From Cyclobacteriaceae bacterium (GTDB lineage: Bacteria; Bacteroidota; Bacteroidia; Cytophagales; Cyclobacteriaceae), in NCBI GenBank assembly GCA_965228045.1, contig OZ245789.1:3522616-3586615 (forward strand): a stretch of 64,000 nt of DNA, written 5' to 3'. The first letter of the stretch is position 1; the number at the start of each line of letters is the position of its first letter. The notes beneath the pieces are model-generated. The model saw nothing but the letters and a program-made list of their open reading frames with translations. It ran no database searches and was not told the DNA's origin. The translations under genes and the position numbers were made by a program. This document shows, piece after piece, positions 2 to 18,619 of the stretch.

Positions 2-83
2 GTTTGGAACAGGAGCAGTGGTCTTCTTGCTGACTGTGCTGGTGGTAGTTAAAGGGGCAAGAGAAAAAGAAATCCAATCCTGA
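2..83 (+). CDS. 3' end of a small hydrophobic ORF (partial, starts before the window)
   Basis: Frame is open from the window edge (...FGTGAVVFLLTVLVVVKGAREKEIQS*). Its TGA overlaps the ATG of the next gene (TGATG, 81-85). Confidence 0.3.
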   Translation, partial: FGTGAVVFLLTVLVVVKGAREKEIQS

Positions 84-1510
84 TGGTTGACCAGACTTAT
101 ATTGTTTCTCCAACCGTTGGTTGGATTTTACTGGCTACCCTGAGTGTCCTGTGGATTCTGCTTGGAATTTACTGGGGACGAAAAGCCAAAAACATGGAAG
201 GCTTCATGTTAGCAGGAAGAAATGTCGGGTTGGCATTTGGTGCCGCTACGGCAATGGCTACCTGGGTTACTTCCAACACCACCATGCTGGCTCCCCAGTT
301 CGCCCTGGAACTCGGTATCTGGGGTATGATTGCCTATTCCACCGCATCATTTGGATTGTTCCTGTTTGCGCCACTTGCCAAAAGAATAAGACACCTGATG
401 CCGGAAGGCTACACCAGTGGAGATTTTATACGACTGAGATACGGTAAAATTCCATGGCTTATCTTCCTGGCTATCAGTATTTTCTACGGATTTACATGGC
501 TTATAAGCATGGGCATGGCCGGAGGGATTCTGATGAACGCCATTGCAGGTATACCCTACCAGATCGGCATGACCGTAATTCTGACCGTATGCGTCATTTA
601 CACGCTTTTCGGTGGACTCTATGCTGTGATTGGTACTGACTATATTCAATCGCTGCTGATCCTGATCGGCATCGTGATAGTAGGGATCGGGGTTATAACC
701 CAAATAGACTTCTCAACCATTCATATGAACGTCCTGGATGAGAAGCCAATGTTGTTGAATGCTTTGATGCCTGCGGCACTCATGGCGATCTTCAATAATC
801 TGCTTTTCGGTCTGGGAGAGGTTTTTCATAGCAATGTATGGTGGAGCCGTGCATTCGCCATGCGAAAAAATATAGGTAGCAAGGCCTACACCCTTGCAGG
901 ATTCTTCTGGTTCCCTGTTCCTATCGCCGCGGGCTTCATCGCATTAACCAGTGGATCACTCGGAATCAACATTACCAGCCCGGATATGGTCGGTCCGCTT
1001 GTATCTGCCCATGTACTGGGCCAGGCCGGTGCTGTCATTGTATTTGCAGTGTTCTTTTGCTCACTCGCATCTAGTATTGACAGCCTGCTGGCAGCAACAG
1101 CAGACTTGATCACGGAAGATATTTACCGAAAACTGATCAAACCTGATGCCACAGAAAAATCATTAAGAAAAATGTCATCCAGGATCATCATAGGGTTGGG
1201 GGTGTTAGCATGGCTTGTCTGCCTGCCGAGAGTAGGTACGCTGGCTACCGTTTTGTTTTTTGCGGGGCCGATGGTAGGAAGCACTATTTGGCCGATAGCC
1301 ACAGGTCTTTTCTGGAAGAAGGCTAATGCCAAAGGCGCGCTCTGGGGTATGGTACTGGGAACATCCATCGGACTGATCTGTTATTTCCAACTCGGTTGGT
1401 ATACAGCATCACTGATTGGAGCGGCTGTTTCCATGATTACGGTAGTGGTCTTTACGCAACTGTATCCGGATGATTTTGATTGGAATAACCTAAACGAGTC
1501 TCACGCATGA
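83..1510 (+). CDS. sodium:solute symporter (SSS/SSF family) transporter
   Basis: 475-aa polytopic ORF. N-terminal GRKAKNMEGFMLAGRNVG motif and overall helix pattern are typical of SSF transporters. Confidence 0.85.
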   Translation: MVDQTYIVSPTVGWILLATLSVLWILLGIYWGRKAKNMEGFMLAGRNVGLAFGAATAMATWVTSNTTMLAPQFALELGIWGMIAYSTASFGLFLFAPLAKRIRHLMPEGYTSGDFIRLRYGKIPWLIFLAISIFYGFTWLISMGMAGGILMNAIAGIPYQIGMTVILTVCVIYTLFGGLYAVIGTDYIQSLLILIGIVIVGIGVITQIDFSTIHMNVLDEKPMLLNALMPAALMAIFNNLLFGLGEVFHSNVWWSRAFAMRKNIGSKAYTLAGFFWFPVPIAAGFIALTSGSLGINITSPDMVGPLVSAHVLGQAGAVIVFAVFFCSLASSIDSLLAATADLITEDIYRKLIKPDATEKSLRKMSSRIIIGLGVLAWLVCLPRVGTLATVLFFAGPMVGSTIWPIATGLFWKKANAKGALWGMVLGTSIGLICYFQLGWYTASLIGAAVSMITVVVFTQLYPDDFDWNNLNESHA

Positions 1511-1638
1511 AAACAGCATTTTTTCCTGAGAGTTTTCTGAGCATTCTGGTGGTGAGCGCCCTCATTGGGATTAGCATCGCTGTGGTTGTATTACTGGTTT
1601 TGCTTATCAAAGACATTAAATCCGACAAACTATGGTAG
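1507..1638 (+). CDS. small single-pass membrane protein (43 aa), translationally coupled
   Basis: Not in the ORF track (<60 aa). ATGA overlap with the symporter stop. Peptide MKTAFFPESFLSILVVSALIGISIAVVVLLVLLIKDIKSDKLW. Its stop overlaps the next gene's start by 7 nt. Confidence 0.4.
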   Translation: MKTAFFPESFLSILVVSALIGISIAVVVLLVLLIKDIKSDKLW

Positions 1639-2720
1639 GAGGAAAATTCAACCCAAAAGAGAATTTATTGTCAAAGGATCCTCTGGAGTCCAATGGTCTT
1701 CATCCGGATCCTGAAAAGCTTCTGGAGGAGCGCACGATTAATACGGAGATCCTGAAAAAATTAACAGGGCAAAGTATCCTGTCTGTGGATCAGTTTGACA
1801 AACAACTTGTGCTGGAAATCTGCAAGTTCGCTGCCCTTCTGGAGAGCACGGAGATTGCAAAGAGTCACCCCCTTGACGGTAAAATCGTGATCACCGCATT
1901 CTTCGAAGCCAGTACCAGGACCAGGATATCTTTTGAAAGTGCAGTGCTGAGGCTGGATGGTAAAATCATCAGTATTCCGGAAGGAAGTACCACCGGTCAG
2001 GCAAAAGGCGAGTCCCTTTCTGATATAGGCGAAATGTTCAATGCATACGCAGACTGCGTGGTAATGCGACATGGAGAAACAGATGCGCTGGATGAAATTA
2101 TGCAGAATCTTCGCATACCGCTTATCAATGCAGGAAATGGATCGGGTGAGCATCCCACACAGGCCCTTACCGACTGGTTTGCCATCCTAAAATGGAAGCC
2201 GGCTATCATGGATACGCTACCTCCTGAAGAGAAAATTCACCTCGGGATCCTGGGTACACCCGGAAGCATGCGTGCCGTCAACAGCTTTTTACGTATGTCA
2301 TTCCTGTTCAAGGAAAATATCAAACAAATTTCCATTGTATCCGAAATGGCAGATCCTCTCGGGGAGGAATTGACTAATAGGGTTAAAAAGTCAGGGATTG
2401 AGGTTCTTATCACTAATGATGTGAACGACGTAGTCGAAGATCTGGATGCCCTGTATATGAACTCAATAGCTTTCCTTGGCGACAGTTACAAATCACTCGA
2501 TTCCAGGTTCAAGCTCAACGAAAAAACTAAACTGAAAGAAGATGCGGTAGTGCTTCATCCATTGGCCAGGCTTGACGAACTGGATCCTATGCTGGATGGA
2601 ACTCACCATAATTTGTATTTCACACAAGCACACGGAGCTGTCTTCGTAAGACAGGCTCTTTTTATTTCGGTTTTGAACCGATTCAATCATTTACCAAAAG
2701 ATCAAATCAGAATAGCATAA
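1632..2720 (+). CDS. aspartate/ornithine carbamoyltransferase-family enzyme (ATCase-like, substrate uncertain)
   Basis: Carbamoyl-phosphate motif FFEASTRTRISFE, HPTQAL motif and LHPLARL (the HPLPR equivalent). The region aligning by eye to the PyrB YMTRVQ Asp-binding segment reads YMNSIA. Confidence 0.8.
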   Translation: MVGGKFNPKENLLSKDPLESNGLHPDPEKLLEERTINTEILKKLTGQSILSVDQFDKQLVLEICKFAALLESTEIAKSHPLDGKIVITAFFEASTRTRISFESAVLRLDGKIISIPEGSTTGQAKGESLSDIGEMFNAYADCVVMRHGETDALDEIMQNLRIPLINAGNGSGEHPTQALTDWFAILKWKPAIMDTLPPEEKIHLGILGTPGSMRAVNSFLRMSFLFKENIKQISIVSEMADPLGEELTNRVKKSGIEVLITNDVNDVVEDLDALYMNSIAFLGDSYKSLDSRFKLNEKTKLKEDAVVLHPLARLDELDPMLDGTHHNLYFTQAHGAVFVRQALFISVLNRFNHLPKDQIRIA

Positions 2721-4714
2721 TGTGCGGAATAACCGGATATTGGAAAAATAGCAGGCTGGAGCCAAATGCAGCGGAGATCCTGGCAAACATGACAGCCACT
2801 TTATACCATAGGGGGCCGGATGGATATGGGTACCACCAGGATAATGATCATGGTCTCGCCATGGGTCATGCCAGGTTGTCCATCATTGACTTGAACACCG
2901 GTGATCAGCCCCTTTTCAGCACAGACAATAAGAAAGTACTGACTGTGAATGGCGAGTTCTACGATTACAAAAGGATTAGAACCAACCTGAGGCTCGATGG
3001 ATTCCAGTTTCGCACAAAAAGTGATAGCGAAATAGCGCTTCCACTTTACGAAAAACACGGGCTTGAATTTATTGATCACTTGCGGGGAGAATTTGCCGGT
3101 GTGCTCCACGATACCACAAAAAACCGAACCATCCTTTTCCGGGACCGTTTTGGGATCAAACCGCTCTTCTACCACATCAAAAACGGAAATGTTTTCTGGG
3201 GGTCTGAGATAAAATCTCTTTTTGCACACCCCGAAGTACCCAGAGCTTTTGACAATAAGGCCCTGGTACATCAATTGATGCACACCATGGTACCCGGCAC
3301 AAGCGCATTTTCAGAAATTCATGCTTTAAAACCCGGCCACATGCTGATCCTTGACAGAAAAGGTGATAGCCTGGAGGTAACTGAAAAAACCTACTGGGAC
3401 ATGGATTTTCCGGAGGAGGATGCCCGTGATCTTAGCAAAACCGAAGATTACCATATCGGACGGGTGCAGGATGAACTGCTCAAGGCTGTGGAATTTCGCC
3501 TGGAAGCGGATGTTCCTGTGGGCTGTTACTTGTCAGGAGGTATCGACAGCTGCTCGATGTTGGGACTTGCTTCGTCCATGCAACAATCTCCGGTAAAGGC
3601 GTTTACGATCAGTTTTGACAACAAAGACTACGACGAGGCACACATCGCCCGCGAGATGGCAGAAAAAGTTAACGCCGACCAGGACCAGATCAACCTGTCA
3701 GCCACGGAACTGTATGGGGACAACTACATCAAAACCCTATGGCATGCGGAAAGAACCTTCTACAATACCCTTGGCGTAGCCAAATGGTGCATGAGTCGCA
3801 GGGTGAATGAATCCGGATACCGTGTGGTGGTTACTGGAGAAGGTTCTGATGAGCTTTTTGGGGGCTACCCTCAGTTTAAAAGGGATATGCTGCGCTTCGG
3901 ATACCAGAAGATGGAAGAAGGTGGCGCCCATAGCAAGGAGGAGGTCAAGAGCTACCAGGAGCTCATGGAGAAGACCAACAAGATATTTAAGGGTGCTATT
4001 CTTTCCGAGGAACAGATCACGCACCCAGCCATGGAGAGCATATGTGGGTTTACACCCTCATGGATACAACCCTGGATGCACACACTGGAGATCGCCCGCC
4101 CGTTATTGCATGACGACATACTCGATGATATTAAAGACTATGATCCTATTGAGGCGATTGCAAACTCCTTTGACAAGACACAGTTGGATGGACGCCATGT
4201 CCTGGATAAGGCCCAATATACCTGGAGTAAGACGATGCTCGAGTGTCAAATCCTCAACTGGGGCGGTGACAGGGTGGACATGGCCAATTCCATGGAATCA
4301 AGACCAGCATTCCTTGACCATCATGTGGCGGAAATGGCCCGCGACATCCCCCCTCACCTGAGAATTCACGGAAACACAGAGAAATGGGTACTAAGGGAAG
4401 CCATGAAAAATGTATTGCCAACCGTACTTTATGAACGCGAAAAATTTGCCTTCATGTCCCCTCCGGCTCACACGGAGAAAAAGAAGAAACTAGCATTAGA
4501 TGCGCTGATGGACCAGTTTATGAACGACTCTGCGGTGCAGGAAGCCGGAATATTTGATCCGGCTCGTCTAAAGACTTTTATTAATGACTACAAAAACGAC
4601 ACAGATCCGGTATCGTTAGTCCGTAAGGACGCGCTTATCAATCATTTACTTGGACTGCAGATCCTGAATGAACAATTCATCAAGGATCCATTAAAGGTCC
4701 CCAGCCCCACATGA
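2720..4714 (+). CDS. asparagine synthetase B-family glutamine-dependent amidotransferase
   Basis: Starts MCGITGYW (Ntn Cys2 nucleophile). PP-loop CYLSGGIDSC. 664 aa. Start overlaps the upstream stop (TAATG). Confidence 0.85.
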   Translation: MCGITGYWKNSRLEPNAAEILANMTATLYHRGPDGYGYHQDNDHGLAMGHARLSIIDLNTGDQPLFSTDNKKVLTVNGEFYDYKRIRTNLRLDGFQFRTKSDSEIALPLYEKHGLEFIDHLRGEFAGVLHDTTKNRTILFRDRFGIKPLFYHIKNGNVFWGSEIKSLFAHPEVPRAFDNKALVHQLMHTMVPGTSAFSEIHALKPGHMLILDRKGDSLEVTEKTYWDMDFPEEDARDLSKTEDYHIGRVQDELLKAVEFRLEADVPVGCYLSGGIDSCSMLGLASSMQQSPVKAFTISFDNKDYDEAHIAREMAEKVNADQDQINLSATELYGDNYIKTLWHAERTFYNTLGVAKWCMSRRVNESGYRVVVTGEGSDELFGGYPQFKRDMLRFGYQKMEEGGAHSKEEVKSYQELMEKTNKIFKGAILSEEQITHPAMESICGFTPSWIQPWMHTLEIARPLLHDDILDDIKDYDPIEAIANSFDKTQLDGRHVLDKAQYTWSKTMLECQILNWGGDRVDMANSMESRPAFLDHHVAEMARDIPPHLRIHGNTEKWVLREAMKNVLPTVLYEREKFAFMSPPAHTEKKKKLALDALMDQFMNDSAVQEAGIFDPARLKTFINDYKNDTDPVSLVRKDALINHLLGLQILNEQFIKDPLKVPSPT

Positions 4715-4775
4715 TTGAGATACTTAGGGTCCAACATTCCCATCTTTTTACAATCAAACCAAAATTATCAAACTT

Positions 4776-5591
4776 ATGGATGACAAACATTTACTAAACT
4801 TAAAAGACCAGGATTACGGGGAAAACCCCACCGAGGTCAGAGAAACCGAAAAATATAAGGAGGAGTATGTTCAGTCCTTTGTTGAGAAATGGGATGAACT
4901 AATCGACTGGGATGCCCGAAACAAAGGTGAAGAAGGCTTTTTCATCCGGGCACTTAAGGAAAAAAAGAAGCAAAAAATTCTCGATGTGGCCACTGGTACA
5001 GGATACCACACCATTCAACTTCTGAGAGAAGGATTTGATGTATGGAGTGGAGACGGTAGTCCAAATATGCTGGCCAAGGCATTTGAAAATGGTAGAAAAA
5101 GAGGATTTATCCTGAAAACCATGCAGGCAGACTGGAGAGAATTGAATAAAACAATATCTGGCCGATTTGATGCGGTTATCTGCCTGGGTAATTCATTCAC
5201 ACACCTTCACGACGAAAATGACAGAAGGAAAGCACTTGCAGAGTTCTACAGCGCATTGAAGTATAATGGTATCCTTATCCTTGATCACAGGAATTACGAT
5301 TCAATCCTGGATAATGGCTTCAGTTCAAAACATACCTATTACTATGCTGGCGATGAGGTGAAAGCCGAGCCTGAATATGTGGACGAAGGATTGGCCAGGT
5401 TCCAGTATGAGTTCCCGGACAAATCAAAGTACCACCTCAACATGTTCCCACTGAGAAAACAGTACATGACAAATCTCATGCAAGAGGTGGGGTTTCAGAA
5501 CATTGAGACCTATGGAGATTTCCAGGAAACGTATAAAACCGATGATCCTGATTTCTTTATTCACATAGCACATAAAGAATATCAAAAGTAA
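4776..5591 (+). CDS. glycine/sarcosine N-methyltransferase (GSMT)
   Basis: DYGENPTEVR, VEKWDELIDW, SAM motif ILDVATGTGYH, FDAVICLGNSFTHL and HTYYYAGDEVKAEPEYVDEGLARF all match what I recall of halophile GSMT/GNMT. Confidence 0.8.
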   Translation: MDDKHLLNLKDQDYGENPTEVRETEKYKEEYVQSFVEKWDELIDWDARNKGEEGFFIRALKEKKKQKILDVATGTGYHTIQLLREGFDVWSGDGSPNMLAKAFENGRKRGFILKTMQADWRELNKTISGRFDAVICLGNSFTHLHDENDRRKALAEFYSALKYNGILILDHRNYDSILDNGFSSKHTYYYAGDEVKAEPEYVDEGLARFQYEFPDKSKYHLNMFPLRKQYMTNLMQEVGFQNIETYGDFQETYKTDDPDFFIHIAHKEYQK

Positions 5592-5595
5592 GAAT

Positions 5596-6426
5596 ATGAG
5601 CGAACAGGAAGTAACTGATATTACCAAGGACTATTATGACAGCAAAAGCGCGGATGAGTTTTACAACCTAGTTTGGGGTGGTGAAGACATCCACGTTGGA
5701 TTATATGAAGATGGCTTATCCATCTCAGATGCCAGCAAGAAGACTGTACACACAATGGCCACTATGCTTAGCAACCTCGGTCCTGACTCCAGGGTACTGG
5801 ATGTCGGTGCCGGATATGGAGGGGCTGCCCGTCAAGTAGTAAGAAATTTTGGTCCTCATTTTACGTGTCTAAACCTCAGTGAGGTTGAAAACAAGCGTAA
5901 CGAACAAAAAAACGAAGAACAAAACCTGGCTGATAAAATCGATGTGGTACAGGGAGATTTTGAAAACCTGCCCTTCGAAGACAACAGCTTCGACTTTATC
6001 TGGTCCGAAGACGCAATCCTTCATAGCGGCAATAAGCCAAAAGTCTTTGAAGAAATCTCAAGAGTCTTAAAACCTGGAGGAGAATTTATATTCACGGATC
6101 CGATGCAGAGCGACGATTGCCCTGATGGTGTTTTGGAGGATATCCTGGCTAGAATCCACCTTAAGCAGCTCGGCTCCGTGAAACTTTATCGCGAATTGGC
6201 TGCCAAGACAGGTATGAAGGAAGTGGAGATCAGAGAGATGCCAGAACAACTGGTAAATCACTATTCCTCCGTCCTTCGGGACCTTACGGCAAAGGAAGAT
6301 GCACTTCTCGAAAGGGATTGCGAGCAGGAATATATCGACCGAATGAAGGTTGGTCTCAATCACTGGATAGAAGGTGGTAAAAAAGGATACCTGAATTGGG
6401 GTATTCTTAAGTTCAGAAAATCCTAA
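5596..6426 (+). CDS. sarcosine/dimethylglycine N-methyltransferase (SDMT)
   Basis: DYYDSKSADEFYNLVWGGEDIHVGLY, VLDVGAGYGG, FTDPMQSDDCPDGVLEDILARIHL and RMKVGLNHWIEGGKKGYLNWGILKF match the SDMT family. Confidence 0.8.
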   Translation: MSEQEVTDITKDYYDSKSADEFYNLVWGGEDIHVGLYEDGLSISDASKKTVHTMATMLSNLGPDSRVLDVGAGYGGAARQVVRNFGPHFTCLNLSEVENKRNEQKNEEQNLADKIDVVQGDFENLPFEDNSFDFIWSEDAILHSGNKPKVFEEISRVLKPGGEFIFTDPMQSDDCPDGVLEDILARIHLKQLGSVKLYRELAAKTGMKEVEIREMPEQLVNHYSSVLRDLTAKEDALLERDCEQEYIDRMKVGLNHWIEGGKKGYLNWGILKFRKS

Positions 6427-6430
6427 GAAC

Positions 6431-7669
6431 ATGGCACTAAAGGTAAATTTCGAACGGCTAAAAGATAATATCAACGAGCTTGCCCAGATCGGTCGAAGAA
6501 CTGATGGTGGAATTTACCGCATGGCCTTTACCAGTGAGGAATACGAAGCCAGAAAGTGGCTGGAAAAGAAGCTTACTGAGATTGATGTTGAGGTCCAAAG
6601 AGATGGAGCATTAAACATCATTGGGAAGCTCCATAGTTCTTCAAATCAGGACAAACCGGCACTTGTGGTGGGTTCCCATATCGATACTGTCCCCAATGCC
6701 GGGGCCCTGGATGGAGCATTAGGTGTGCTGGTGGGCCTGGAGTGCCTTAATAGAATAAAGGAAGAAAATCCCGAACTAAAGGTACCCCTGGAACTGATCG
6801 CCTTCAGTGATGAAGAAGGTCGTTTTGGGGGGATGTTTGGTTCAAGAGCATTTTCGGGTCAGCTAAATCCTGGCATTATCGAAGAAGCTGCCGACCTGGA
6901 GGGAAAACATTTGACTGATGTGATCCAGGAACTTGGCTTTGACGCGCATCGCGCACTTGATGCTTCGCGTAACCGTGAAACGGTCAAGAGTTACCTGGAA
7001 TTGCACATCGAACAAGGTCCGGTTCTGGATACCGAAAATCTCTCCGTTGGTGTGGTTTCTGACATTACCGGGCTCTTCAAGTGGCAGGTACAACTAACTG
7101 GTAGCGCCAACCACGCAGGCACAACGCCCATGGAGTTGCGAAAGGATGCATTTATGGGACTCGCAGATTTTGCGCATGAAATCCCCAGGATCATTGATGA
7201 AAATGGCAGTGAATACTCCAGGATCACCATAGGTAATGTGACCTTACATCCGGGTTCAGCCAATACTGTTCCCGGCCAGGTGGACTTCAGTATAGACGCC
7301 CGTGACATTAGTGTAGATGTCATGAGAGAGCTGCAGGATGCTTGTCGCAAAGCCCTGTCGGCCATAGTCAGACGGCGACAACTTCGATTTGACTTCAATG
7401 AGGTGAGCTGGATCAATCCCGTGGCTTGTGAGCCGGATTTACAAAAAATCATAGAAAGTCAGGCCAAAAACCTCAAGTTGCCATACAAGGTAATGCCCAG
7501 TGGCGCAGCACATGACGCACAAATGATGGCACACATATCACCCATTGCAATGATTTTCGTTCCAAGTAAAAATGGCATCAGTCACTCGCCTCATGAGTGG
7601 ACAGATTGGCATCATATCGAAAGTGGTGCTAACTTGATGCTCAATACCATAATTGAAATCTGTAAATGA
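6431..7669 (+). CDS. M20-family N-carbamoyl-L-amino-acid / allantoate-type amidohydrolase
   Basis: GSHIDTVPNAGALDGALGV, FSDEEG and HAGTTPM motifs typical of the AmaB/AllC-type Zn hydrolases. 412 aa. Confidence 0.8.
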   Translation: MALKVNFERLKDNINELAQIGRRTDGGIYRMAFTSEEYEARKWLEKKLTEIDVEVQRDGALNIIGKLHSSSNQDKPALVVGSHIDTVPNAGALDGALGVLVGLECLNRIKEENPELKVPLELIAFSDEEGRFGGMFGSRAFSGQLNPGIIEEAADLEGKHLTDVIQELGFDAHRALDASRNRETVKSYLELHIEQGPVLDTENLSVGVVSDITGLFKWQVQLTGSANHAGTTPMELRKDAFMGLADFAHEIPRIIDENGSEYSRITIGNVTLHPGSANTVPGQVDFSIDARDISVDVMRELQDACRKALSAIVRRRQLRFDFNEVSWINPVACEPDLQKIIESQAKNLKLPYKVMPSGAAHDAQMMAHISPIAMIFVPSKNGISHSPHEWTDWHHIESGANLMLNTIIEICK

Positions 7670-8448
7670 AAGACTTCGATAAAAACTTACTTCCTGACGA
7701 TTCCCATGATCCGTTAAAAGAATACTATCGTCATATTGTAGATGATCAGTCGAAGGAACGACTGAAAATTATTTCCCATCACGGGGCAGCTCTCCTGATC
7801 ATTGATCTGCAATACCTGGATGCTGCAAGAGGATATGGAGTCTTTCATGATTTGACTTCATCTGGTATCCCTGAGGAGCAGCAGAAGTATTACTTTGATA
7901 CCCTGGAGGAACGAGTAATTCCTAATGTTCAGAGATTGCTCAAGGTTTTCCGTGAAAAAAAGATGGAGGTTATTCATACCAGGATCCAGGCACTTACCAA
8001 AGATGGCAGGGATCGAAGCAATGGCCATAAGCGACTGGACCTGCTGGCGGCACCCGGATCAAAAGAAGCTGAATTCTTACCAGAGGTTGCCCCAAAAGAG
8101 GATGAAATCATTATCAACAAAACCGCAAGCGGAGTTTTTTCATCGACCAATCTCAACTATGTTCTTCAGAACCTTCAAATCAATGAATTATTTGTTTGCG
8201 GAGTTTACACCAATGAGTGTGTTGAAACCACCATTCGCGATGCTTGTGACCTGGGTTACCTGGTTACGTTAGTAGAGGATGCCTGCACAACTGTGACTCC
8301 TGAATTACACCAGGGCGCGATCAACAGTCTTAGAAACCGATATGCTGCCGTGCAAAGTACGGATGATATCGAGAACTTATTCAGGGTCATAGAAGATCAC
8401 CCTCCAATACCCGGAGCTCCTACCATTAGCAGAAGCATCAAAATATAG
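7666..8448 (+). CDS. isochorismatase-family cysteine hydrolase (amidase-type)
   Basis: ATGA overlap with the upstream gene. ALLIIDLQ, NKTASGVFSST and the catalytic-Cys segment LFVCGVYTNECVETTIRDA. Confidence 0.8.
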   Translation: MKDFDKNLLPDDSHDPLKEYYRHIVDDQSKERLKIISHHGAALLIIDLQYLDAARGYGVFHDLTSSGIPEEQQKYYFDTLEERVIPNVQRLLKVFREKKMEVIHTRIQALTKDGRDRSNGHKRLDLLAAPGSKEAEFLPEVAPKEDEIIINKTASGVFSSTNLNYVLQNLQINELFVCGVYTNECVETTIRDACDLGYLVTLVEDACTTVTPELHQGAINSLRNRYAAVQSTDDIENLFRVIEDHPPIPGAPTISRSIKI

Positions 8449-8449
8449 A

Positions 8450-9676
8450 TTAGTCGTAAAGCAGGTGTTTGGTTGTAGAGCTCCTTTCTGATATGAACCT
8501 AATCAGATAGTGGCCCTTTGTTATATCCGCTGGTAGTTCGATAGTCGGTTCAAAAGTAGCCTGCTCCATTATAATACTCCCCTTCTGATCATACAGCACC
8601 ACCTTATCCGGAATTTCACCGGAAAGGTGAATGGTTCTGTTCCACCCTACCGGGTTTGGATAAAAATCAAAATCACCGGTAGCATTATCAAAGTTGACGG
8701 ACTTTAGCGCGATGACTTCAGTGGTGCCATCAAAATCTGTTTGACTCAACCGGTAATAAACCAGTCCTGATTCTACGCCGTAATCCTCCCAATAATAGGT
8801 CTTTAATTCATCGGTGTTTCCATTTCCGTCAATTACGACTATTCCTGTAAATTCCTCTTTTCCGATTGACCTTTCGAGGGTAAAGTATTCGTTATTGATC
8901 TCTATTGCAGTGCTCCATTCCAACGCTACGTACCCACTTTCAATTGATGTTGTAAAGGACACCAACCTCACCGGTAGTGTCACACTACCCGGACAGTTAG
9001 CATTGGTACAGGAAGCCGCAGACATGGTGCCATTATTAGAAACTTGACCGCCGTAAGCAATATTCATTTCGTCCGCCACAGAAACGTTACCTGTTCCACT
9101 CACAGTCATGCTACCTGCTCCCGCCATTTCAAGATCATCGCCTATGTCCAGATCCCCATCGATATTGAAGTTATGGGGTCCACTGCTGATGTAAACATCC
9201 CCGGTAAAACTCGCTTCTCCATCAGAATACACATTGAAATTACCCCCATTTCCATTGGCCACGCTGAATGACCCACCATTGAGTGTCCCATATACATTAA
9301 TCGCAGCTGCCTGCTGCCACCCCATGGCGCCACCGAAGTTCAGGGTTGCTCCGGATGAGATGCTAATCGCCCCATCACTTTGACCATTTATTCCAATGGT
9401 GATGCCATTAGTAATAGACAAATTGCCTCCGGTAATATTTAAAATCCCAGCTATCCTTGGCCCCCAGGATGTACCCAGGCTTATGGATCCGGCTTGATTA
9501 GCACCTGATGAGGTAACTGTATGCTTTATGGTTACATCATCAGCCGAAGTAGGAATACATGCACAACTCCAGGTACTGGTACTTCCCCAGTCACCGGACT
9601 GAGAAGATGTAATATTCGCAGAATAGGCCATTGTGGAAACGGCCATGAAAATAGTGAGCGGTATAATTTTTTTCAC
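8450..9676 (-). CDS. secreted beta-helix-like protein with T9SS C-terminal sorting domain
   Basis: Signal peptide MKKIIPLTIFMAVSTMAYS. Gly/Asn/Ser-rich repeats. C-terminus FYPNPV...IHL...VLYDQKGSII...KGHYLIRF is typical of a Por/T9SS CTD. Confidence 0.65.
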   Translation of the reverse strand: MKKIIPLTIFMAVSTMAYSANITSSQSGDWGSTSTWSCACIPTSADDVTIKHTVTSSGANQAGSISLGTSWGPRIAGILNITGGNLSITNGITIGINGQSDGAISISSGATLNFGGAMGWQQAAAINVYGTLNGGSFSVANGNGGNFNVYSDGEASFTGDVYISSGPHNFNIDGDLDIGDDLEMAGAGSMTVSGTGNVSVADEMNIAYGGQVSNNGTMSAASCTNANCPGSVTLPVRLVSFTTSIESGYVALEWSTAIEINNEYFTLERSIGKEEFTGIVVIDGNGNTDELKTYYWEDYGVESGLVYYRLSQTDFDGTTEVIALKSVNFDNATGDFDFYPNPVGWNRTIHLSGEIPDKVVLYDQKGSIIMEQATFEPTIELPADITKGHYLIRFISERSSTTKHLLYD

Positions 9677-9872: not shown

Positions 9873-10904
9873 ATGAAACGAATAAGATTACTTATTTCCG
9901 CGCTTCTTCTATTGGCTCTGGGAGTTCAGGCTCAGCCAGTAAAAGTTTCGAGCCTATCTGCTGAAGCTGATTCCCTTTTGAATTTCATCCAATCAATCTC
10001 CGGTATTAAAACATTGACCGGACAGCACTGCGCCCCATTGATGGGGTCCACCCGACTTTCCGTTGTTCACAGAATGACCGAAAAATATCCCGCCGTATTC
10101 GGACAGGATTTTGGCTTTAGTTTCCCGGGTTACTGGGATGGCATTAATTACAGGCAGGCTATCGTGGACGAGGCCATTAAGCGCCATAATGAAGGGTTTA
10201 TCATCACCCTTATGTGGCATGCCGTTTTACCTACACAAGATGAACCGGTCAAATTCAGTGAATCCATACAAGGGGAGCTATCTGATGCAGAATGGACCGA
10301 ACTCATAACACCAGGTACTAACCTCAATGAACGGTGGAAATCACAGGTCGATGTGATCGCATGGTTTCTGAAACAGCTGAAATTCGCCAGGGTGCCGGTG
10401 CTCTGGCGTCCGTATCATGAAATGAATGGAGGCTGGTTCTGGTGGGGAAAGAAGAAAGGTGACGACGGATACAAAAAGCTCTGGCTCATGATGTATGATA
10501 GGTTCGTAAACTTTCATGGTCTGGATAACCTGATCTGGGTCTACAATACCAATGAATTTAAGCCTGGAGTTGATCGACATGAGCTTTATTATCCGGGTGA
10601 CGACTATGTGCATATTGTCGCCACGGACGTTTACTCTCAGGGATTTGATAAAGAAAACTATCAGCAGCTCCTCGAACTGGCTGGAGACAAGCCAATGGCA
10701 CTTGGGGAAGTAGGAATGCTTCCTGATAAGAAAAAGCTGGAGGATCAACCCCGTTGGACCTGGTTTATGTACTGGTTTGACCCTGAAGGTCCATCCTTCA
10801 TAGAGAATCGGAATACATACCAGCTGGAGCAGTCCCTGACATATGATGAATTACCTTGGGTGAAAAATCGCGATCCGAGGGTGCACTACCCTGTGTTAAG
10901 GTAA
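9873..10904 (+). CDS. glycoside hydrolase family 26 (beta-mannanase-like)
   Basis: Signal peptide plus the diagnostic segment WRPYHEMNGGWFWWG. Confidence 0.75.
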   Translation: MKRIRLLISALLLLALGVQAQPVKVSSLSAEADSLLNFIQSISGIKTLTGQHCAPLMGSTRLSVVHRMTEKYPAVFGQDFGFSFPGYWDGINYRQAIVDEAIKRHNEGFIITLMWHAVLPTQDEPVKFSESIQGELSDAEWTELITPGTNLNERWKSQVDVIAWFLKQLKFARVPVLWRPYHEMNGGWFWWGKKKGDDGYKKLWLMMYDRFVNFHGLDNLIWVYNTNEFKPGVDRHELYYPGDDYVHIVATDVYSQGFDKENYQQLLELAGDKPMALGEVGMLPDKKKLEDQPRWTWFMYWFDPEGPSFIENRNTYQLEQSLTYDELPWVKNRDPRVHYPVLR

Positions 10905-11009
10905 CTTATCACCTTTTTAAAGGTTGCAGAAACTTCCTGAACCGCCCGTAATAATTTAAAATAGGATTACCATTTCTGTTTCCTAATTTGCCCATTCATT
11001 TTAAAGCCT

Positions 11010-12365
11010 ATGAGAAAGTTTATCATCATATTAATAACTGCACCATTTCTGGCTCTCGGCCAATCTGATTCTGCGGTAGTAAAAAGCATTTACGACGAAG
11101 CACTCTCCAACTCCCCTGTATATGAAAACCTGAGAGTACTTTGCAAGGATGTAGGAAACCGTCTGTCCGGTTCAACTGGTGCAGCGGCTGCCGTCGAGTA
11201 TACGCGTCAGCTAATGATGGAATACGATTTTGACACCGTGTTTCTGCAACCTGTCATGGTACCCTGGTGGGTTCGTGGGAAAAAAGAAATTGCGAGAGTA
11301 ACAGATTCAAAAGCGGGATCTTTGGAACTGGACATTCTGGCTCTAGGTAACAGTGTAGGGACCGGACCTGAAGGTGTTCGCGCACAAGTAGTTGAAGTGA
11401 GCGGTATGGAAGAGGTGGAAGAATTAGGCAAAGAACTTGAAGGGAAAATAGTGTTTTACAATGGACCCATGGATCGGACATTAACGGAGACCTTCAGAGC
11501 TTATGGTAATGCCGTAATTCAAAGAGCATATGGTGCCTCGGAAGCCGCCAAGTATGGTGCCAAAGCAGTGATCGTCAGGTCTATGACCCAGGCATTGGAT
11601 GACGTACCACATACAGGATCATTGCGGTACAAACCGAATATGCCAAGGATACCTGCGGTGGCAGTTAGTACAGAAGACGCGGAATTATTGAGTCTCCTGC
11701 TCAAGCAGGAGCAAGTGGAACTGTATTTGGAAACACATTGTGAAATCCGCGAGGATGTACTCTCCTACAACGTCATTGGGCAGTTAAACGGTAGCGAATT
11801 CCCGGATGAATATATAGCTGTTGGAGGACACCTCGACAGCTGGGATGTGGGAGAAGGCGCACACGATGACGGTTCTGGGTGTATGCAGGCCATTGAAGCT
11901 CTCAGGCTCTTCAAGGAGCTTGGTATCCAGCCGAAAAGGACGATTAGAGCAGTCATGTGGATGAATGAAGAAAATGGTCTTGCCGGAGGACGGGAATATG
12001 CCCGAGTTGCTGCAGAAGAGGGATTAAATCATATTGCAGCCATTGAATCAGACAGAGGTGGTTTCCTTCCTATTGGATTCTCTTCTACTGGAGACTCCGA
12101 AAGCCAAACGAAACTTCGGTCCTGGAAGTCATTATTCCTGCCCTACGGACTATACAATTTTGATAGAAATGGAGGTGGTGCAGACATTGGTCCGTTGGCA
12201 CAGAATGGAACCTTCCTCATAGGACTATTACCAGATGGTCAAAGATATTTCAGATACCATCATACACCGGCAGATGTATTTGAGGCCGTCGACAGAAGAG
12301 AACTCGAACTTGGTGCTGCGAGTATGTCGGCGCTCATTTACCTGATCGACCAGTACGGCCTTTAG
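11010..12365 (+). CDS. M28-family aminopeptidase
   Basis: Signal peptide. Metal-binding segments GGHLDSWDVGEGAHDDGSGC and WMNEENGLAG. Confidence 0.8.
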   Translation: MRKFIIILITAPFLALGQSDSAVVKSIYDEALSNSPVYENLRVLCKDVGNRLSGSTGAAAAVEYTRQLMMEYDFDTVFLQPVMVPWWVRGKKEIARVTDSKAGSLELDILALGNSVGTGPEGVRAQVVEVSGMEEVEELGKELEGKIVFYNGPMDRTLTETFRAYGNAVIQRAYGASEAAKYGAKAVIVRSMTQALDDVPHTGSLRYKPNMPRIPAVAVSTEDAELLSLLLKQEQVELYLETHCEIREDVLSYNVIGQLNGSEFPDEYIAVGGHLDSWDVGEGAHDDGSGCMQAIEALRLFKELGIQPKRTIRAVMWMNEENGLAGGREYARVAAEEGLNHIAAIESDRGGFLPIGFSSTGDSESQTKLRSWKSLFLPYGLYNFDRNGGGADIGPLAQNGTFLIGLLPDGQRYFRYHHTPADVFEAVDRRELELGAASMSALIYLIDQYGL

Positions 12366-12371
12366 AAGTTT

Positions 12372-12407
12372 TGCGATCAGGATTTACCCGGGTAAATCCT
12401 GATCGCA
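12372..12407. terminator. perfect 36-bp palindrome between convergent genes (bidirectional terminator candidate)
   Basis: TGCGATCAGGATTTACCC|GGGTAAATCCTGATCGCA lies between the stops at 12365 (+) and 12432 (-). Confidence 0.55.
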
Positions 12408-12431
12408 CGAATCCAAGCAACCATAACGAGA

Positions 12432-12818
12432 TCATTGCTGTTTGTTTTTTGAAGCCAGGACGGCTACCTGGTATTCCAGGTGCTTAATGTGCTTGATCAT
12501 CGCGTTCTTATCCATTTGCATCCAGCTCCAGATTTTCAACAGCGAGACTGTTATGAAGCCAAAAAAGAATCCGACAGACCAGAGTATCATTTCCCGCACG
12601 GTTTCTACCTGAAATATCATGTAGACGCTGTAAACGGCAATTCCAAGGAAGACGAAAATGAACACAAAACTCAATACCGCTACCCAGGCATTCTTTCCTT
12701 TATAGATACCCATTAGCTGTTCAGGAATAGAATCTTCTTCCAGGTCCTTAAAATACTCTGCCTCCTCCCGGGTCAGAGCCTCTTCGATCAGTCGATCGAT
12801 TTCTTCTACATTTTTCAT
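12432..12818 (-). CDS. two-TM membrane protein downstream of ECF sigma (possible anti-sigma partner)
   Basis: 128 aa with an acidic N-terminus and two hydrophobic helices. Sits 6 nt downstream of the sigma gene. Confidence 0.5.
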   Translation of the reverse strand: MKNVEEIDRLIEEALTREEAEYFKDLEEDSIPEQLMGIYKGKNAWVAVLSFVFIFVFLGIAVYSVYMIFQVETVREMILWSVGFFFGFITVSLLKIWSWMQMDKNAMIKHIKHLEYQVAVLASKNKQQ

Positions 12819-12824
12819 GCTATT

Positions 12825-13352
12825 CTATGTTAACAGTTCTTTCAATTGCTTTCTTGCGTTAAAAAGCCTGGATTTTACAGTTCCGGATGGTACTTCCAGT
12901 ACTGCAGAAATTTCATCTACGGAGTGCTTCTCCAGGTAAAACATCATGAGTATCAACCTCTGTTGATCAGGTAATTTCTTCATGGCCAGATTCAACCTTT
13001 CCACTACATCCTCCTCCCCATCGCCACCATCACTTTCCACCAGCTGAGGATACTCGATTTTCCGCTCCCTTTGATTCGACCTGATCCAGTCAACAGCTTT
13101 TCGTGTTGCGATTCTCAGCGCCCATATACCAAAAAGAGCTGGTTCGCGAAGGTTGTAAATACCCTTTAATATGGCTTCCCAAACTTCCTGAGCCAGATCC
13201 TCGGCTACCTCCTGCTCATATGTATGCCGGTTCAGCTGCCTTTTGATCTTCTGGTGCCACCGCTTGATCAGCAGCTCCATGGCCTTCTTATCGCCTTCAC
13301 GATATTTCAGAACAAGTAATTCATCAAAGATCTGATCAGCAGACTTTTTCAT
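12825..13352 (-). CDS. ECF-type RNA polymerase sigma-70 factor
   Basis: Region 2 (DLAQEVWEAILKGI...FGIWALRIATRKAVDWIR) and region 4 (EKHSVDEISAVLEVPSGTVKSRLFNARKQL). Confidence 0.85.
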   Translation of the reverse strand: MKKSADQIFDELLVLKYREGDKKAMELLIKRWHQKIKRQLNRHTYEQEVAEDLAQEVWEAILKGIYNLREPALFGIWALRIATRKAVDWIRSNQRERKIEYPQLVESDGGDGEEDVVERLNLAMKKLPDQQRLILMMFYLEKHSVDEISAVLEVPSGTVKSRLFNARKQLKELLT

Positions 13353-13438
13353 AATTCATATCAATAGTCGGCGTTATTCTTATGAGGTTCAATCAAAGTG
13401 GAATTATTTTTCATAAATATTCATTCTAGCTTTATATC

Positions 13439-14020
13439 ATGCGATCATCTCTATTTCTATTTTCAATCATAGCGTACCTGTTGGTGGGCCTAAACGGTTG
13501 CGATCAGGAGGATGTTAAGTCCCGGGCGAGGGCCAAACTTGTCTCTATAAACGCCACTTCCGATTCGACATATTTACCCGGTACAGAAGAGATTGGAGAG
13601 GCTGTTTTTACAGACCTCGGTGACCGGGTTCGCGTTTTTATACAGCTCTATGATATGATCCCAAACTGGGGGCATGCCGTTCACATTCACAATGGTTCTT
13701 GCGAGCAACCCACAAATCATTGGAATATGGGAGACACCATCAATTATTGCAACGAAATGAACCTGGGAGAACCATGGATGCGGCCAAAAGCCGGGGATAT
13801 CGGTAACGTGGAAACAGATGACTTTGGGGATGGTATCCTGATCGTAGAGAGTGAGTTCTGGGATCTGAATGGCTCCAGTGAAAAAAACCTGGAGGGACTG
13901 GTTGTGGTGATCCACGAAAAACCGGAGGATTTTGAGATTGAATGCGGTGAGATGCATACACACAAACACAATAATCGTAAATTGGCGTGCGGAACCATAT
14001 TCCTCGATGCCAATGATTAA
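13439..14020 (+). CDS. Cu/Zn superoxide dismutase-like lipoprotein
   Basis: Lipobox LNGC. HAVHIHNGSCE, GDIGNVETDDFGDG and VVVIHEKPED...LACGTI resemble SodC metal and active-site segments. Confidence 0.6.
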   Translation: MRSSLFLFSIIAYLLVGLNGCDQEDVKSRARAKLVSINATSDSTYLPGTEEIGEAVFTDLGDRVRVFIQLYDMIPNWGHAVHIHNGSCEQPTNHWNMGDTINYCNEMNLGEPWMRPKAGDIGNVETDDFGDGILIVESEFWDLNGSSEKNLEGLVVVIHEKPEDFEIECGEMHTHKHNNRKLACGTIFLDAND

Positions 14021-15179: not shown

Positions 15180-15181
15180 GA

Positions 15182-16237: not shown

Positions 16238-16262
16238 CTTACAAATTTAATAAATCGTAGGT

Positions 16263-17441: not shown

Positions 17442-17499
17442 TGCTGAGTAGGTGTAACAGGTATTACGTAAAAAATCTGAAATTGATCCGAAAGGATTC

Positions 17500-18309: not shown

Positions 18310-18619
18310 TAACTTTCTATAACTACGGTTCTTACTACGGTTTCTTAGATTCGGAATTTAGCGAATAGTTAGGGTTCCCCCAAAATTTACAGGTGATTTT
18401 TGATTTAAATCTTAAGATTTTAATCATTGATAACTAACTACTTATGTGTCCAATACAAATTTAAGAACTGTCAGGTAATCACCTGATGACTAAACGTCAA
18501 AAGGCGAATAACAAGCGCTGAATAAGTAAATCCTTTAAGTGAATGTTATGTAACCCCTTCAGGAAGCAGGATTATGTTAATTTAGCGACCTAATCCTAAG
18601 AGAACTTTTATTCACAGTT

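Follow-up and report, generated by a model that had tools for sequence, protein, structure and literature searches.

The operon at the start of the window (the 64,000-nucleotide stretch of contig OZ245789.1 from a Cyclobacteriaceae bacterium that was analysed here) is a mosaic, composed of a conserved gene module and an inserted GSMT-SDMT methyltransferase cassette. The core of the module encodes a protein with a signal peptide, an FN3-like domain and a transmembrane (TM) segment, an SSS-family symporter, a TM peptide of about 40 residues, a carbamoyltransferase and an AsnB-like amidotransferase, and it occurs in at least six phyla. Judging from gene content and motifs, this widespread module may serve to synthesise, import and turn over a solute of the N-carbamoyl amino-acid amide type, e.g. 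N-carbamoyl-glutamine amide, a tentative assignment to which we give a probability of about 0.45.

All eight complete ORFs from position 83 to 8448 lie on the plus strand. They encode the symporter (83-1510, 475 residues), the TM peptide (1507-1638, 43 residues), the carbamoyltransferase (1632-2720, 362 residues), the AsnB-like amidotransferase (2720-4714, 664 residues), the two cassette proteins GSMT (4776-5591, 271 residues) and SDMT-like (5596-6426, 276 residues), an M20 hydrolase (6431-7669, 412 residues) and an isochorismatase-family protein (7666-8448, 260 residues). They are preceded on the same strand by the 3' end of a truncated gene (3-83), whose stop overlaps the symporter start in the sequence TGATG (81-85). 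Overlaps of the type ATGA join the symporter to the peptide gene (1507-1510) and the M20 to the isochorismatase gene (7666-7669), the peptide and carbamoyltransferase ORFs share 7 nt (1632-1638), and the carbamoyltransferase/AsnB junction reads TAATG (2718-2722). Gaps of 4 nt follow the GSMT (5592-5595) and SDMT (6427-6430) genes, and the only larger gap within the unit is a spacer of 61 nt (4715-4775, plus strand), which forms the upstream boundary of the inserted cassette. Inside the unit, an Rfam search identified no elements, and no intergenic terminator-like sites were found. The unit ends at 8448, as the next gene, encoding a T9SS-tailed protein (8450-9676), is on the minus strand; the operon begins upstream of the window, since 3-83 is the tail of a longer gene. 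The ORFs and junctions of the original prediction, including the 61-nt gap, were reproduced by ORF listing and sequence check, as were its family assignments by Pfam and NCBIfam profile matches.

The core was found in Bacteroidota, Verrucomicrobiota, Calditrichota and Ignavibacteriales, and also in Planctomycetota, Nitrosomonas, a cyanobacterium and a more distant relative with 43% identity. The AsnB-like enzyme is an obligate partner of the carbamoyltransferase, its gene lying downstream of the carbamoyltransferase gene at every eligible locus (75/75); the symporter gene (54-83% identity) is upstream of the carbamoyltransferase gene in 72/72. In one metagenome relative the pair forms a carA-carB-carbamoyltransferase-AsnB operon, adjoining a GT20/S6PP sugar-solute synthase gene, and this arrangement suggests an anabolic direction. 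A MarR regulator is encoded upstream in 25/80 loci. A Pfam scan of 68 flanking genes revealed none that are conserved next to the module, and carbamate kinase was not among their commonest families; neither did ORF clustering of the 80 loci yield a conserved carbamate kinase family. Many hosts are non-saline, such as Chitinophaga japonensis, Sphingobacterium, Saprospiraceae from activated sludge and Verrucomicrobiota from soil.

The truncated gene at 3-83 encodes the C-terminal TM anchor of a protein of about 140 residues that is cut by the window edge. Its full-length homologues (136-207 residues) consist of a signal peptide, an FN3-like extracytoplasmic beta domain with weak FN3-type Pfam matches (Pur_ac_phosph_N), and a C-terminal TM helix; they have the C-terminal ...VVKGA... 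anchor in common with the window ORF and directly precede the symporter in 64/80 related loci. This anchored protein probably serves the symporter as an accessory subunit. The symporter itself matches PF00474 (SSF) with 118 bits and stays below all specific NCBIfam cut-offs (PutP, PanF, ActP). The SSS family includes the osmoprotectant importer OpuE, and we propose uptake or recapture of the solute, or of a precursor, as the task of the module symporter. The peptide encoded at 1507-1638 (MKTAFFPESFLSILVVSALIGISIAVVVLLVLLIKDIKSDKLW) has one TM segment and is translationally coupled at both ends; tblastn identified it in about 35 loci (38-67% identity), and the gene is called at 39-54 residues in Chitinophaga, Nitrosomonas, Stieleria and the 43%-identity relative (L088). 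Thus, of the two small TM ORFs originally described as flanking the transporter, the 43-residue ORF is a genuine conserved gene, while ORF 3-83 is only the tail of a larger one.

The carbamoyltransferase has the fold and the OTCace_N and OTCace domains of PyrB, and ATCases are its best PDB matches (about 130-148 bits), but it scores under the TIGR00670 cut-off (171 versus 237 bits). In the family alignment (60-82% identity across phyla) the STRTR, HPTQ and HPLAR motifs and the equivalents of K84 and R167 are invariant; an R105 equivalent is also kept, and PyrB has HPLPR in place of HPLAR. RxQxER is the signature of ATCase (PMC4581275). An equally invariant sequence, NSIAFLGDSY, takes the place of this 240s loop, with the beta-carboxylate binders R229 and Q231 replaced by Ser and Ala. 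The enzyme lacks the aspartate-binding loop and is therefore not PyrB; it also differs from PyrB in an N-terminal extension of about 45 residues and in its context, which is never a pyr cluster and in which an SSS symporter and an AsnB homologue are constant partners. The R167 equivalent, which binds the alpha-carboxylate, is retained along with every carbamoyl-phosphate motif, a pattern suggesting that the substrate may be an alpha-amino acid whose side chain is uncharged and differs from that of aspartate. We propose a transcarbamylase of the ATCase branch with a new specificity, N-carbamoylating an alpha-amino acid. Actinobacterial relatives with about 40% identity (39-42%) are found in pyrimidine-type clusters with TenA, ThyA-like, dCMP deaminase, deoxyribosyltransferase-like and HMP-kinase-like genes, and the wider clade is therefore not confined to one role.

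The amidotransferase combines GATase_7 and Asn_synthase domains, starts with MCG and exceeds the cut-off of TIGR01536 (414 versus 267 bits), but not that of the AsnB model (271 versus 499 bits). To our knowledge, all characterised members of the AsnB family activate a carboxylate, and we propose that this glutamine-hydrolysing enzyme amidates the carboxylate of an N-carbamoyl amino acid.

The M20 protein exceeds the cut-offs of TIGR01879 (hydantoinase/carbamoylase, 374 versus 204 bits) and of NF006771 (518 versus 399 bits), a model named allantoate amidohydrolase being among those it passes, and falls under that of an ErtE-like model (377 versus 520 bits). Its best solved relative is the N-carbamoyl-L-amino-acid hydrolase of Geobacillus (3n5f, 280 bits), an L-N-carbamoylase of the hydantoinase pathway, although hydantoinase and racemase genes are absent nearby in the window. 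We propose that it hydrolyses an N-carbamoyl-L-amino acid. The isochorismatase-family protein (PF00857, 136 bits) has 6xix/6xj4 and the biuret hydrolase 6xjm as best solved relatives, placing it nearest to hydrolases of amides and ureides. It retains the nucleophile Cys of the biuret, triuret and N-carbamoylsarcosine cysteine hydrolases, the Cys of its TNEC motif aligning with a position occupied by Cys in 6xix and by Ser in 6xj4, but it has an N-terminal extension and scores at most 73 bits with any characterised enzyme. It is proposed to be an amidase acting on the carboxamide, with removal of the ureido NH2 as another possibility. In 24/55 loci, and also in Stieleria, the M20 gene adjoins the module, and the isochorismatase-type gene is found in 21/55, always with M20, so that about 40% of core loci, from several phyla, also carry the pair; both are missing within 10 kb in more than half. 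The carbamoylase-type gene occurs in three forms or positions, i.e. beside the isochorismatase-type gene, between the symporter and peptide genes, and as a fusion of 965 residues. These recurrent hydrolases would provide exactly the two activities for undoing a carbamoylation and an amidation.

The GSMT-SDMT route leads from glycine to glycine betaine. As in other such pairs, the two genes are adjacent and in the usual order, and GSMT exceeds the equivalog cut-off of NF051855 (465 versus 350 bits); the SDMT-like protein matches NF041675 over its full length and by far best, but stays under the cut-off (350 versus 550 bits). Unlike the usual pair, this one is embedded in another operon. Its closest GSMT relatives (79-81% identity) belong to stand-alone GSMT-SDMT pairs in unrelated contexts, the SDMT relatives in L083-L085 and L092 have a GSMT partner in every case, and the G+C content of the cassette region is lower (0.425-0.436). 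In relatives from Reichenbachiella the AsnB gene is followed directly by M20, at 45-115 nt with no gene between, and GSMT-SDMT is present in none of the 55 further loci whose flanks are long enough for comparison, the three closest Reichenbachiella genomes among them. We propose that a mobile cassette was inserted between the amidotransferase and the hydrolases in this Reichenbachiella-like genome. As it landed inside the module operon, two osmolyte routes are probably co-transcribed. The idea of one coherent nine-gene pathway operon is thus only partly right: the ATCase-like/AsnB/GSMT/SDMT block in its exact form occurs in no genome but this one and fails as a conserved unit, whereas the ATCase-like/AsnB-like pair within it is kept at every eligible locus.

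We infer the substrates, the order of the steps and the osmotic role as follows. The ATCase-like enzyme would use carbamoyl phosphate to carbamoylate a free amino acid other than aspartate at its alpha-amino group; the AsnB-like enzyme would then adenylate the carboxylate of the product and amidate it with glutamine-derived ammonia, giving an uncharged N-carbamoyl amino-acid amide. The symporter, together with its FN3-like anchored partner and the TM peptide, would import or recapture this solute or a precursor. In loci that have them, the M20 carbamoylase and the isochorismatase-type amidase would reverse both biosynthetic steps, and the solute would therefore be recyclable as a source of nitrogen and carbon. 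Two independent links join the module to GSMT-SDMT: besides this genome, the planctomycete Stieleria maiorica has GSMT-SDMT-BCCT genes directly upstream of it on the same strand. By a rough estimate, about 0.06 such adjacencies would be expected by chance among about 115 loci. In addition, the module adjoins a gene for an MscK-type mechanosensitive channel in the marine Nitrosomonas marina. A carbamoylated, amidated osmolyte co-regulated with betaine had been one of the two readings originally offered, and it is the best fit to the comparative data, i.e. the invariable enzyme pair, the recurrent hydrolases, the carAB-coupled relative and the osmotic neighbours.

Against this reading, only about 4 of roughly 150 loci, window included, show a direct link to osmotic genes, hosts are often non-saline and flanking genes are not conserved; a leading transporter gene is unusual in a biosynthetic solute operon, and synthesis and breakdown genes in one operon would require post-transcriptional control against a futile cycle. 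The same breadth of host ecology and lack of conserved neighbours, as well as the actinobacterial paralogues and the MarR gene (such regulators being typical of operons that respond to small molecules), favour a carbamoylated, amidated molecule with a non-osmotic role, such as a nitrogen store, signal, antimetabolite or cofactor precursor, next to which the betaine genes would be incidental. We regard this as possible but doubtful, as a GSMT-SDMT fusion that arose twice independently, in one case together with BCCT, and an MscK neighbour are unlikely by chance, and the dedicated carAB genes of one relative suggest high flux. In a variant, N-carbamoylation would mask the amine during amidation and M20 would unmask it to yield an amino-acid amide, but as more than half of the loci lack the hydrolases within 10 kb, deprotection is not an obligatory step.

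The leading transporter and the MarR-type regulator would also suit catabolism, in which an imported ureido or amide compound would be hydrolysed by the isochorismatase-type and M20 enzymes, and phosphorolysis by the carbamoyltransferase would yield carbamoyl phosphate, to be used in making ATP or in pyrimidine and arginine synthesis. Catabolic transcarbamylases are known (catabolic OTCase, PTCase and UGTCase; PMC4581275), and the allantoate amidohydrolase match of M20 points the same way. Still, this is improbable: an ATP-consuming, glutamine-hydrolysing AsnB partner has no catabolic place, no conserved carbamate kinase emerged from the ORF clustering or among the commonest families of the flank scan, the carAB-coupled relative points to consumption of carbamoyl phosphate, and most loci lack the hydrolases. 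Even less credit can be given to the other original reading, salvage, in which M20 and the isochorismatase-type enzyme would convert an imported compound of the N-carbamoylglycine or N-carbamoylsarcosine type into glycine or sarcosine, for methylation by GSMT and SDMT to betaine. N-carbamoylsarcosine amidase is an isochorismatase-family enzyme, the four genes are tightly packed in the window (gaps of at most 4 nt), and glycine might be the amino acid handled. However, the match to that amidase (1nba) is weak (49 bits only), the methyltransferases are a stand-alone cassette elsewhere and absent from the 55 comparable loci, the hydrolases accompany the carbamoyltransferase and AsnB across phyla without them, and these two universally conserved enzymes would have no role. 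Synthesis of a guanidino compound, with the AsnB-like enzyme adenylating and aminating the carbonyl of a ureido product by analogy to argininosuccinate synthetase or GMP synthetase, appears very remote. It is chemically plausible and would agree with the strict pairing and with the QueC and LarE matches of the AsnB synthetase domain, which belongs to the PP-loop ATP-pyrophosphatase superfamily, but it conflicts with the carboxylate activation described above for the AsnB family, the hydrolases that recur with the module are of carbamoylase and amidase type rather than guanidine-acting, and no supporting gene context was found.

The osmolyte reading finds its closest known counterpart in the NAGGN system (N-acetylglutaminylglutamine amide; asnO-ngg plus an M42 hydrolase), in which an AsnB-family enzyme neutralises a carboxylate and the gene trio includes a hydrolase. 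The logic proposed for the module is shared: an amine would be capped and a carboxylate amidated by an AsnB-family enzyme to give a neutral solute, a hydrolase is encoded alongside, and the module amidotransferase matches the AsnO/NAGGN model TIGR03104 with 287 bits, though under the cut-off of 570. The module differs in that it is without an Ngg (GNAT/ATP-grasp) gene, would cap with carbamoyl phosphate rather than acetyl-CoA, has its own symporter accompanied by two small membrane proteins, and has hydrolases of the M20 and isochorismatase types. As to the product, the sole natural precedent for such an amide that we know of is N-alpha-carbamoyl-L-glutamine 1-amide, a compatible solute of Ectothiorhodospira marismortui, for which no genes are reported in the literature searched. 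The one N-carbamoylation and one carboxyl amidation that this solute requires correspond exactly to the activities proposed for the module's two invariant enzymes.

The nine open reading frames and all the junctions of the original prediction were reproduced as listed: TGATG at 81–85, ATGA at 1507, a 7-nt overlap at 1632, TAATG at 2718–2722, a 61-nt gap at 4715–4775, 4-nt gaps at 5592 and 6427, and ATGA at 7666. Domain and family scores likewise bear out its assignments to the SSS, OTCace, AsnB, GSMT, SDMT-like, M20 and isochorismatase families. The unit ends at 8448, since the next gene (8450–9676, encoding a T9SS-tailed protein) lies on the other strand. Only one base separates these two convergent stops (8448 and 8450), and each transcript must therefore terminate within the coding sequence of the other. 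The upstream end of the operon probably lies beyond the start of the window, judging from its Reichenbachiella relatives. A search of the window and seven related loci yielded no riboswitch or other RNA element tied to the module, and a scan of the unit for sigma-70 promoters and terminators was uninformative, this promoter type not being expected in Bacteroidota. The region further downstream (9873–20320) is unrelated to the module and encodes a GH26 protein, an M28/PA peptidase, an ECF sigma factor, a Cu/Zn superoxide dismutase, an M19 dipeptidase, an Amidohydro_2 protein, a TPR protein and a gamma-glutamyltranspeptidase.

The SSS symporter is bracketed by two small genes, one for a signal-peptide-bearing, FN3-like, TM-anchored protein of about 140–200 residues and one for a single-TM peptide of about 40 residues (window 3–83 and 1507–1638; related loci L006:8038-8448 and L092:6737-7279, 8865-8987). 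Both are translationally coupled to the symporter gene. They had been described as small TM ORFs, which holds for the conserved 43-residue ORF after the symporter, but the first ORF encodes the C-terminal anchor of a protein whose gene, of about 140 codons, is truncated by the start of the window. Directly 5' of the symporter, 64 of the 80 related loci encode a protein of 136–207 residues with a signal peptide, an FN3-like beta domain and a TM tail (...VVKGA...) in common with window ORF 3–83. The two small proteins may be hitherto undescribed accessory subunits of the transporter.

Aspartate transcarbamylases (ATCases) are characterized by the carbamoyl-phosphate motifs SxRT, HPxQ and HxLP and by RxQxER in the 240s loop (PMC4581275). 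In an alignment of 12 homologues of the carbamoyltransferase, S94-T-R-T-R98 and H174-P-T-Q177 are invariant, and the third carbamoyl-phosphate motif reads H309-P-L-A-R, with Ala replacing the usual Pro (HPLPR to HPLAR). The equivalents of K84, R105 and R167 are also invariant in the family. The 240s loop aligns as Y-M-N-S-I-A-F-L-G-D-S-Y, of which N-S-I-A-F-L-G-D-S-Y is invariant in the 12 members; RxQxER is absent, with R229 replaced by S278 and Q231 by A280. In ATCase, R229 and Q231 bind the beta-carboxylate of aspartate, and R167 binds the alpha-carboxylate. As the arginine that contacts the alpha-carboxylate is retained and the residues binding the beta-carboxylate are not, the simplest guess for the second substrate would be an alpha-amino acid whose side chain is not acidic.

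The protein scores well above the gathering thresholds of PF02729 (122.3 bits versus 29.9) and PF00185 (46.5 versus 29.4), and in the PDB it matches ATCases best, at about 130–148 bits. A canonical PyrB identity was ruled out by the absence of RxQxER together with scores under the cut-offs of the PyrB equivalogs (TIGR00670, 171.2 versus 236.95 bits; NF002032, 170.2 versus 263). On these sequence criteria the enzyme is an ATCase-branch transcarbamylase and, by its defining motif, not PyrB. Its nearest named relatives, from Reichenbachiella (Cytophagales), are 80–81% identical, and a protein search found hundreds of others with identities above 70%. Databases label family members from genomes of many phyla as 'aspartate carbamoyltransferase', which is a mis-annotation if our reading is right. 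Among 1.84 billion representatives the family proper forms a single 50% cluster, alongside a few remoter clusters that have a Y-x-N-S/A loop in common. Four ATCase-like metagenome proteins of about 355 residues (P0258, P0261, P0266, representing a 36-member cluster, and P0270) have degenerate catalytic motifs, with STRTR partly lost and HPL-R changed to HPE or NPE. These could be pseudo-enzymes or enzymes of another specificity. Carbamoyltransferase paralogues of 39–42% identity, also with the Y-x-N-S/A loop, were found in Actinophytocola sp. (L086:8001-17080) and in a metagenome (L090:1-15700). The surrounding clusters encode JmjC/cupin_8, TenA, APH-type kinases, a dCMP/cytidine deaminase, and thymidylate-synthase-like, nucleoside deoxyribosyltransferase-like and ThiD-like kinase proteins, with an AsnB homologue in L086 and an Amidohydro_1 gene instead in L090. 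They look like an uncharacterised biosynthetic cluster of pyrimidine or thiamine-antimetabolite type.

The amidotransferase begins with MCG, providing the Cys nucleophile, and matches the class II GATase domain PF13537 (125.6 bits) and the Asn_synthase domain PF00733 (267.6 bits). It passes only the broad TIGR01536 model (414 versus 267) and scores under the AsnB, AsnO and PEP-CTERM cut-offs, reaching 287.6 bits against 570.1 required for AsnO (TIGR03104). Its best solved relative is TsnB9 (7ylz).

The M20 protein (6431–7669) exceeds the cut-offs of TIGR01879 (374.3 versus 204 bits) and NF006771 (517.8 versus 399), and its closest solved relative is the Geobacillus N-carbamoyl-L-amino-acid hydrolase 3n5f (280 bits). 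TIGR01879 and this nearest structure identify it, at the level of homology, as a hydantoinase/carbamoylase-family amidase. Its second-best NCBIfam family, N-carbamoyl-L-glutamate amidohydrolase ErtE, scores 377 bits, under the cut-off. The last protein of the unit (7666–8448) carries an isochorismatase domain (136.5 bits) and aligns best with the cysteine hydrolases 6xix (73 bits) and 6xj4 and the biuret hydrolase 6xjm, while N-carbamoylsarcosine amidase 1nba reaches just 49 bits. In this alignment the nucleophilic Cys (TNEC) falls at the position that is Cys in 6xix and Ser in 6xj4, and a Lys is also aligned; the putative catalytic Asp is placed from the LLIIDLQ motif only.

Carbamoylase-type genes accompany the module in two other forms. 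In loci L041, L052 and L053 the gene lies between the symporter and peptide genes, and in six loci a carbamoylase-type domain is internal to a 965-residue protein, encoded in L021 and L033 between carbamoyltransferase and AsnB. This protein of about 965 residues (L021:11113-14010, L020:13321-16218, L033:11957-14080, L012:4805-7744, L042:5027-7960, L057:2641-5553) has no Pfam match; its divergent hydantoinase/carbamoylase-like domain, at residues ~380–780, scores about 110–135 bits against carbamoylase models.

Conservation was assessed in 80 loci with up to 10 kb of flank, collected by scanning one genome per species, from Bacteroidota (Cytophagales, Chitinophagales, Sphingobacteriales), Calditrichota, Ignavibacteriales, Verrucomicrobiota, KSB1 and GN15. 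The nine products of the window served as tblastn queries, and only loci with enough flank were counted. An AsnB homologue lies downstream of the carbamoyltransferase on the same strand in 75 of 75 loci, and the symporter lies upstream in 72 of 72. M20 is found near the carbamoyltransferase in 24/55 loci and the isochorismatase-type gene in 21/55, always with M20. Clustering the ORFs of all 80 loci brought out a single additional recurrent neighbour, a MarR regulator gene located upstream in 25 of them; a Pfam scan of the 68 genes bordering the module found no conserved flanking gene, each family occurring in at most three loci.

A further protein search extended the carbamoyltransferase relatives to Nitrosomonas marina, N. 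aestuarii, Stieleria and Roseiconus (Planctomycetes), an oscillatorian cyanobacterium (where the locus consists of the core alone), Spirochaetota, Zixibacteria and Holophagales. When metagenomes were scanned with the Stieleria protein, the core, MarR and M20/isochorismatase-type genes were confirmed in about 20 longer loci, many of them of ocean origin. In a 43%-identity relative the genes for a 148-residue protein, the symporter, the peptide, the carbamoyltransferase and AsnB are retained, and M20 is encoded on the opposite strand. In Nitrosomonas marina (L091) the five-gene core is followed by a convergent gene for a 1155-residue MscK-type mechanosensitive channel (12180–15647). Upstream of this module, on the opposite strand, lies an Asparaginase_2 gene (Ntn-type asparaginase/isoaspartyl peptidase, L091:5576-6586), whose product could be an alternative amidase where the M20 and isochorismatase-type genes are absent. 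A 45%-identity relative on a 225-kb metagenome scaffold is part of a carA-carB-carbamoyltransferase-AsnB operon (L089:3568-10929), which argues that the carbamoyltransferase uses up carbamoyl phosphate, in quantity. On the other strand, 2.4 kb upstream of this operon, lies a fused GT20 and S6PP/Hydrolase_3 gene, for a sugar-solute synthase of the trehalose- or glucosylglycerol-phosphate synthase/phosphatase type. No gene resembling the carA, carB or GT20 genes of L089 turned up in any of the other loci.

The nine-gene composition proposed for the window is upheld in part: the core recurs across phyla, but the full set is a mosaic of one genome. GSMT (4776–5591) scores 465.2 bits against NF051855 (cut-off 350; model positions 1–259), and the SDMT-like protein (5596–6426) reaches 350.3 of the 550 bits set for NF041675, over its full length and at five times the next match; its gene is paired with GSMT in the window and in loci L083–L085 and L092. 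Neither methyltransferase was detected by tblastn near the carbamoyltransferase in the 55 loci with enough flank. In three Reichenbachiella genomes AsnB is followed directly by M20, 45–115 nt apart, and the closest GSMT relatives (79–81% identity) are in stand-alone GSMT-SDMT pairs in unrelated neighbourhoods. The cassette region has the lowest G+C of the unit (0.425–0.436), and its upstream edge coincides with the one true spacer in the operon, of 61 nt. Taken together, these sequence features indicate that the window holds a conserved module with an inserted two-gene betaine cassette. A second betaine link is found in Stieleria maiorica, where GSMT (67% identical to that of the window), SDMT (53%), a BCCT gene, two small ORFs, symporter, peptide, carbamoyltransferase, AsnB, M20 and isochorismatase-type genes follow each other on one strand, with a divergent MarR gene upstream. 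Position and phylum differ between the two cases, and the cassette has thus become linked to this module on at least two occasions. Two GSMT adjacencies among about 115 loci compare with about 0.06 expected by chance, a rough order-of-magnitude estimate rather than a computed statistic. The association is rare, as the metagenome scan with the Stieleria protein added no GSMT or BCCT adjacency to these two cases.

We propose, at slightly less than even odds (roughly 0.45), that the module serves the synthesis, uptake and turnover of an N-carbamoyl amino-acid amide solute. The carbamoyltransferase would convert an amino acid and carbamoyl phosphate to the N-carbamoyl amino acid, which the AsnB-like enzyme would amidate with ATP and glutamine, giving a neutral product with both charges capped. 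The symporter and its two small membrane partners would take up or recapture the solute; OpuE is a precedent for osmoprotectant uptake in the SSS family. For turnover, the isochorismatase-type amidase would strip the amide, after which M20 would hydrolyse the N-carbamoyl-L-amino acid, an order chosen because L-carbamoylases require a free carboxylate. In the window genome, the GSMT-SDMT cassette would add glycine-betaine synthesis to the same transcription unit.

Several other readings have to be weighed against this one. The product could be a metabolite without an osmotic role, or the genes could form a protect-amidate-deprotect route; the broad host ecology, including soil, gut and sludge, and the actinobacterial paralogues (about 40% identity) inside pyrimidine-type clusters speak for this, and we regard it as somewhat doubtful yet the rival to be taken most seriously. 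A catabolic route, with carbamoyl transfer running in reverse, appears improbable, as it leaves the invariant AsnB without explanation, lacks a conserved carbamate kinase and is opposed by the direction to which the carAB-coupled relative points. Salvage of an imported ureido compound to betaine, the first of the two readings offered originally, fails on the absence of GSMT-SDMT from the comparable loci and is now very improbable. Least credible of all is a conversion of ureido to guanidino groups, which is chemically conceivable, with nothing found in its support. A route through allantoin or ureidoglycine, for which UGTCase is a precedent, was rejected, as allantoinase and cupin genes were lacking and AsnB would have no role.

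On the N-carbamoyl amino-acid amide reading, the module would be a cluster of the compatible-solute type, with genes for both synthesis and turnover and a novel transcarbamylase specificity at its base. If this reading is true, genes would be assigned to an orphan class of compatible solutes, a well-studied transcarbamylase family would gain a new substrate specificity, and a nitrogen-rich osmolyte would be widespread in marine Bacteroidota, Planctomycetota, Verrucomicrobiota, Nitrosomonas and the Saprospiraceae of activated sludge. Should the osmotic role prove wrong, the module still stands as a set of four to seven tightly conserved genes.

Literature searches for this gene combination and for carbamoyl osmolytes yielded no description, and in the searched papers no genes are assigned to N-alpha-carbamoyl-L-glutamine 1-amide, a nitrogen-rich neutral solute previously found in a single purple sulfur bacterium. 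The structure of this compound needs exactly the two steps proposed for the module, N-carbamoylation and carboxyl amidation. It is a rather unlikely possibility that the module is its missing pathway, or that of a close analogue, which would then be made, imported and recycled in at least 8–10 phyla, among them marine Bacteroidota, Planctomycetota and Verrucomicrobiota as well as marine ammonia oxidisers, by means of a transcarbamylase of new specificity and an SSS transporter that has two hitherto unrecognised small subunits. Cultivable strains, namely Reichenbachiella spp., Stieleria maiorica, Nitrosomonas marina and Chitinophaga japonensis, now allow a direct test of where N-carbamoyl-glutamine amide comes from. 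The asnO-ngg system for NAGGN differs in its genes, as the amidotransferase of the module is not AsnO by score and the GNAT/ATP-grasp (Ngg) gene was absent from the module in all of about 150 loci. Although not a member of that system, the module would follow the same logic, in which both charges are capped to yield a neutral solute.
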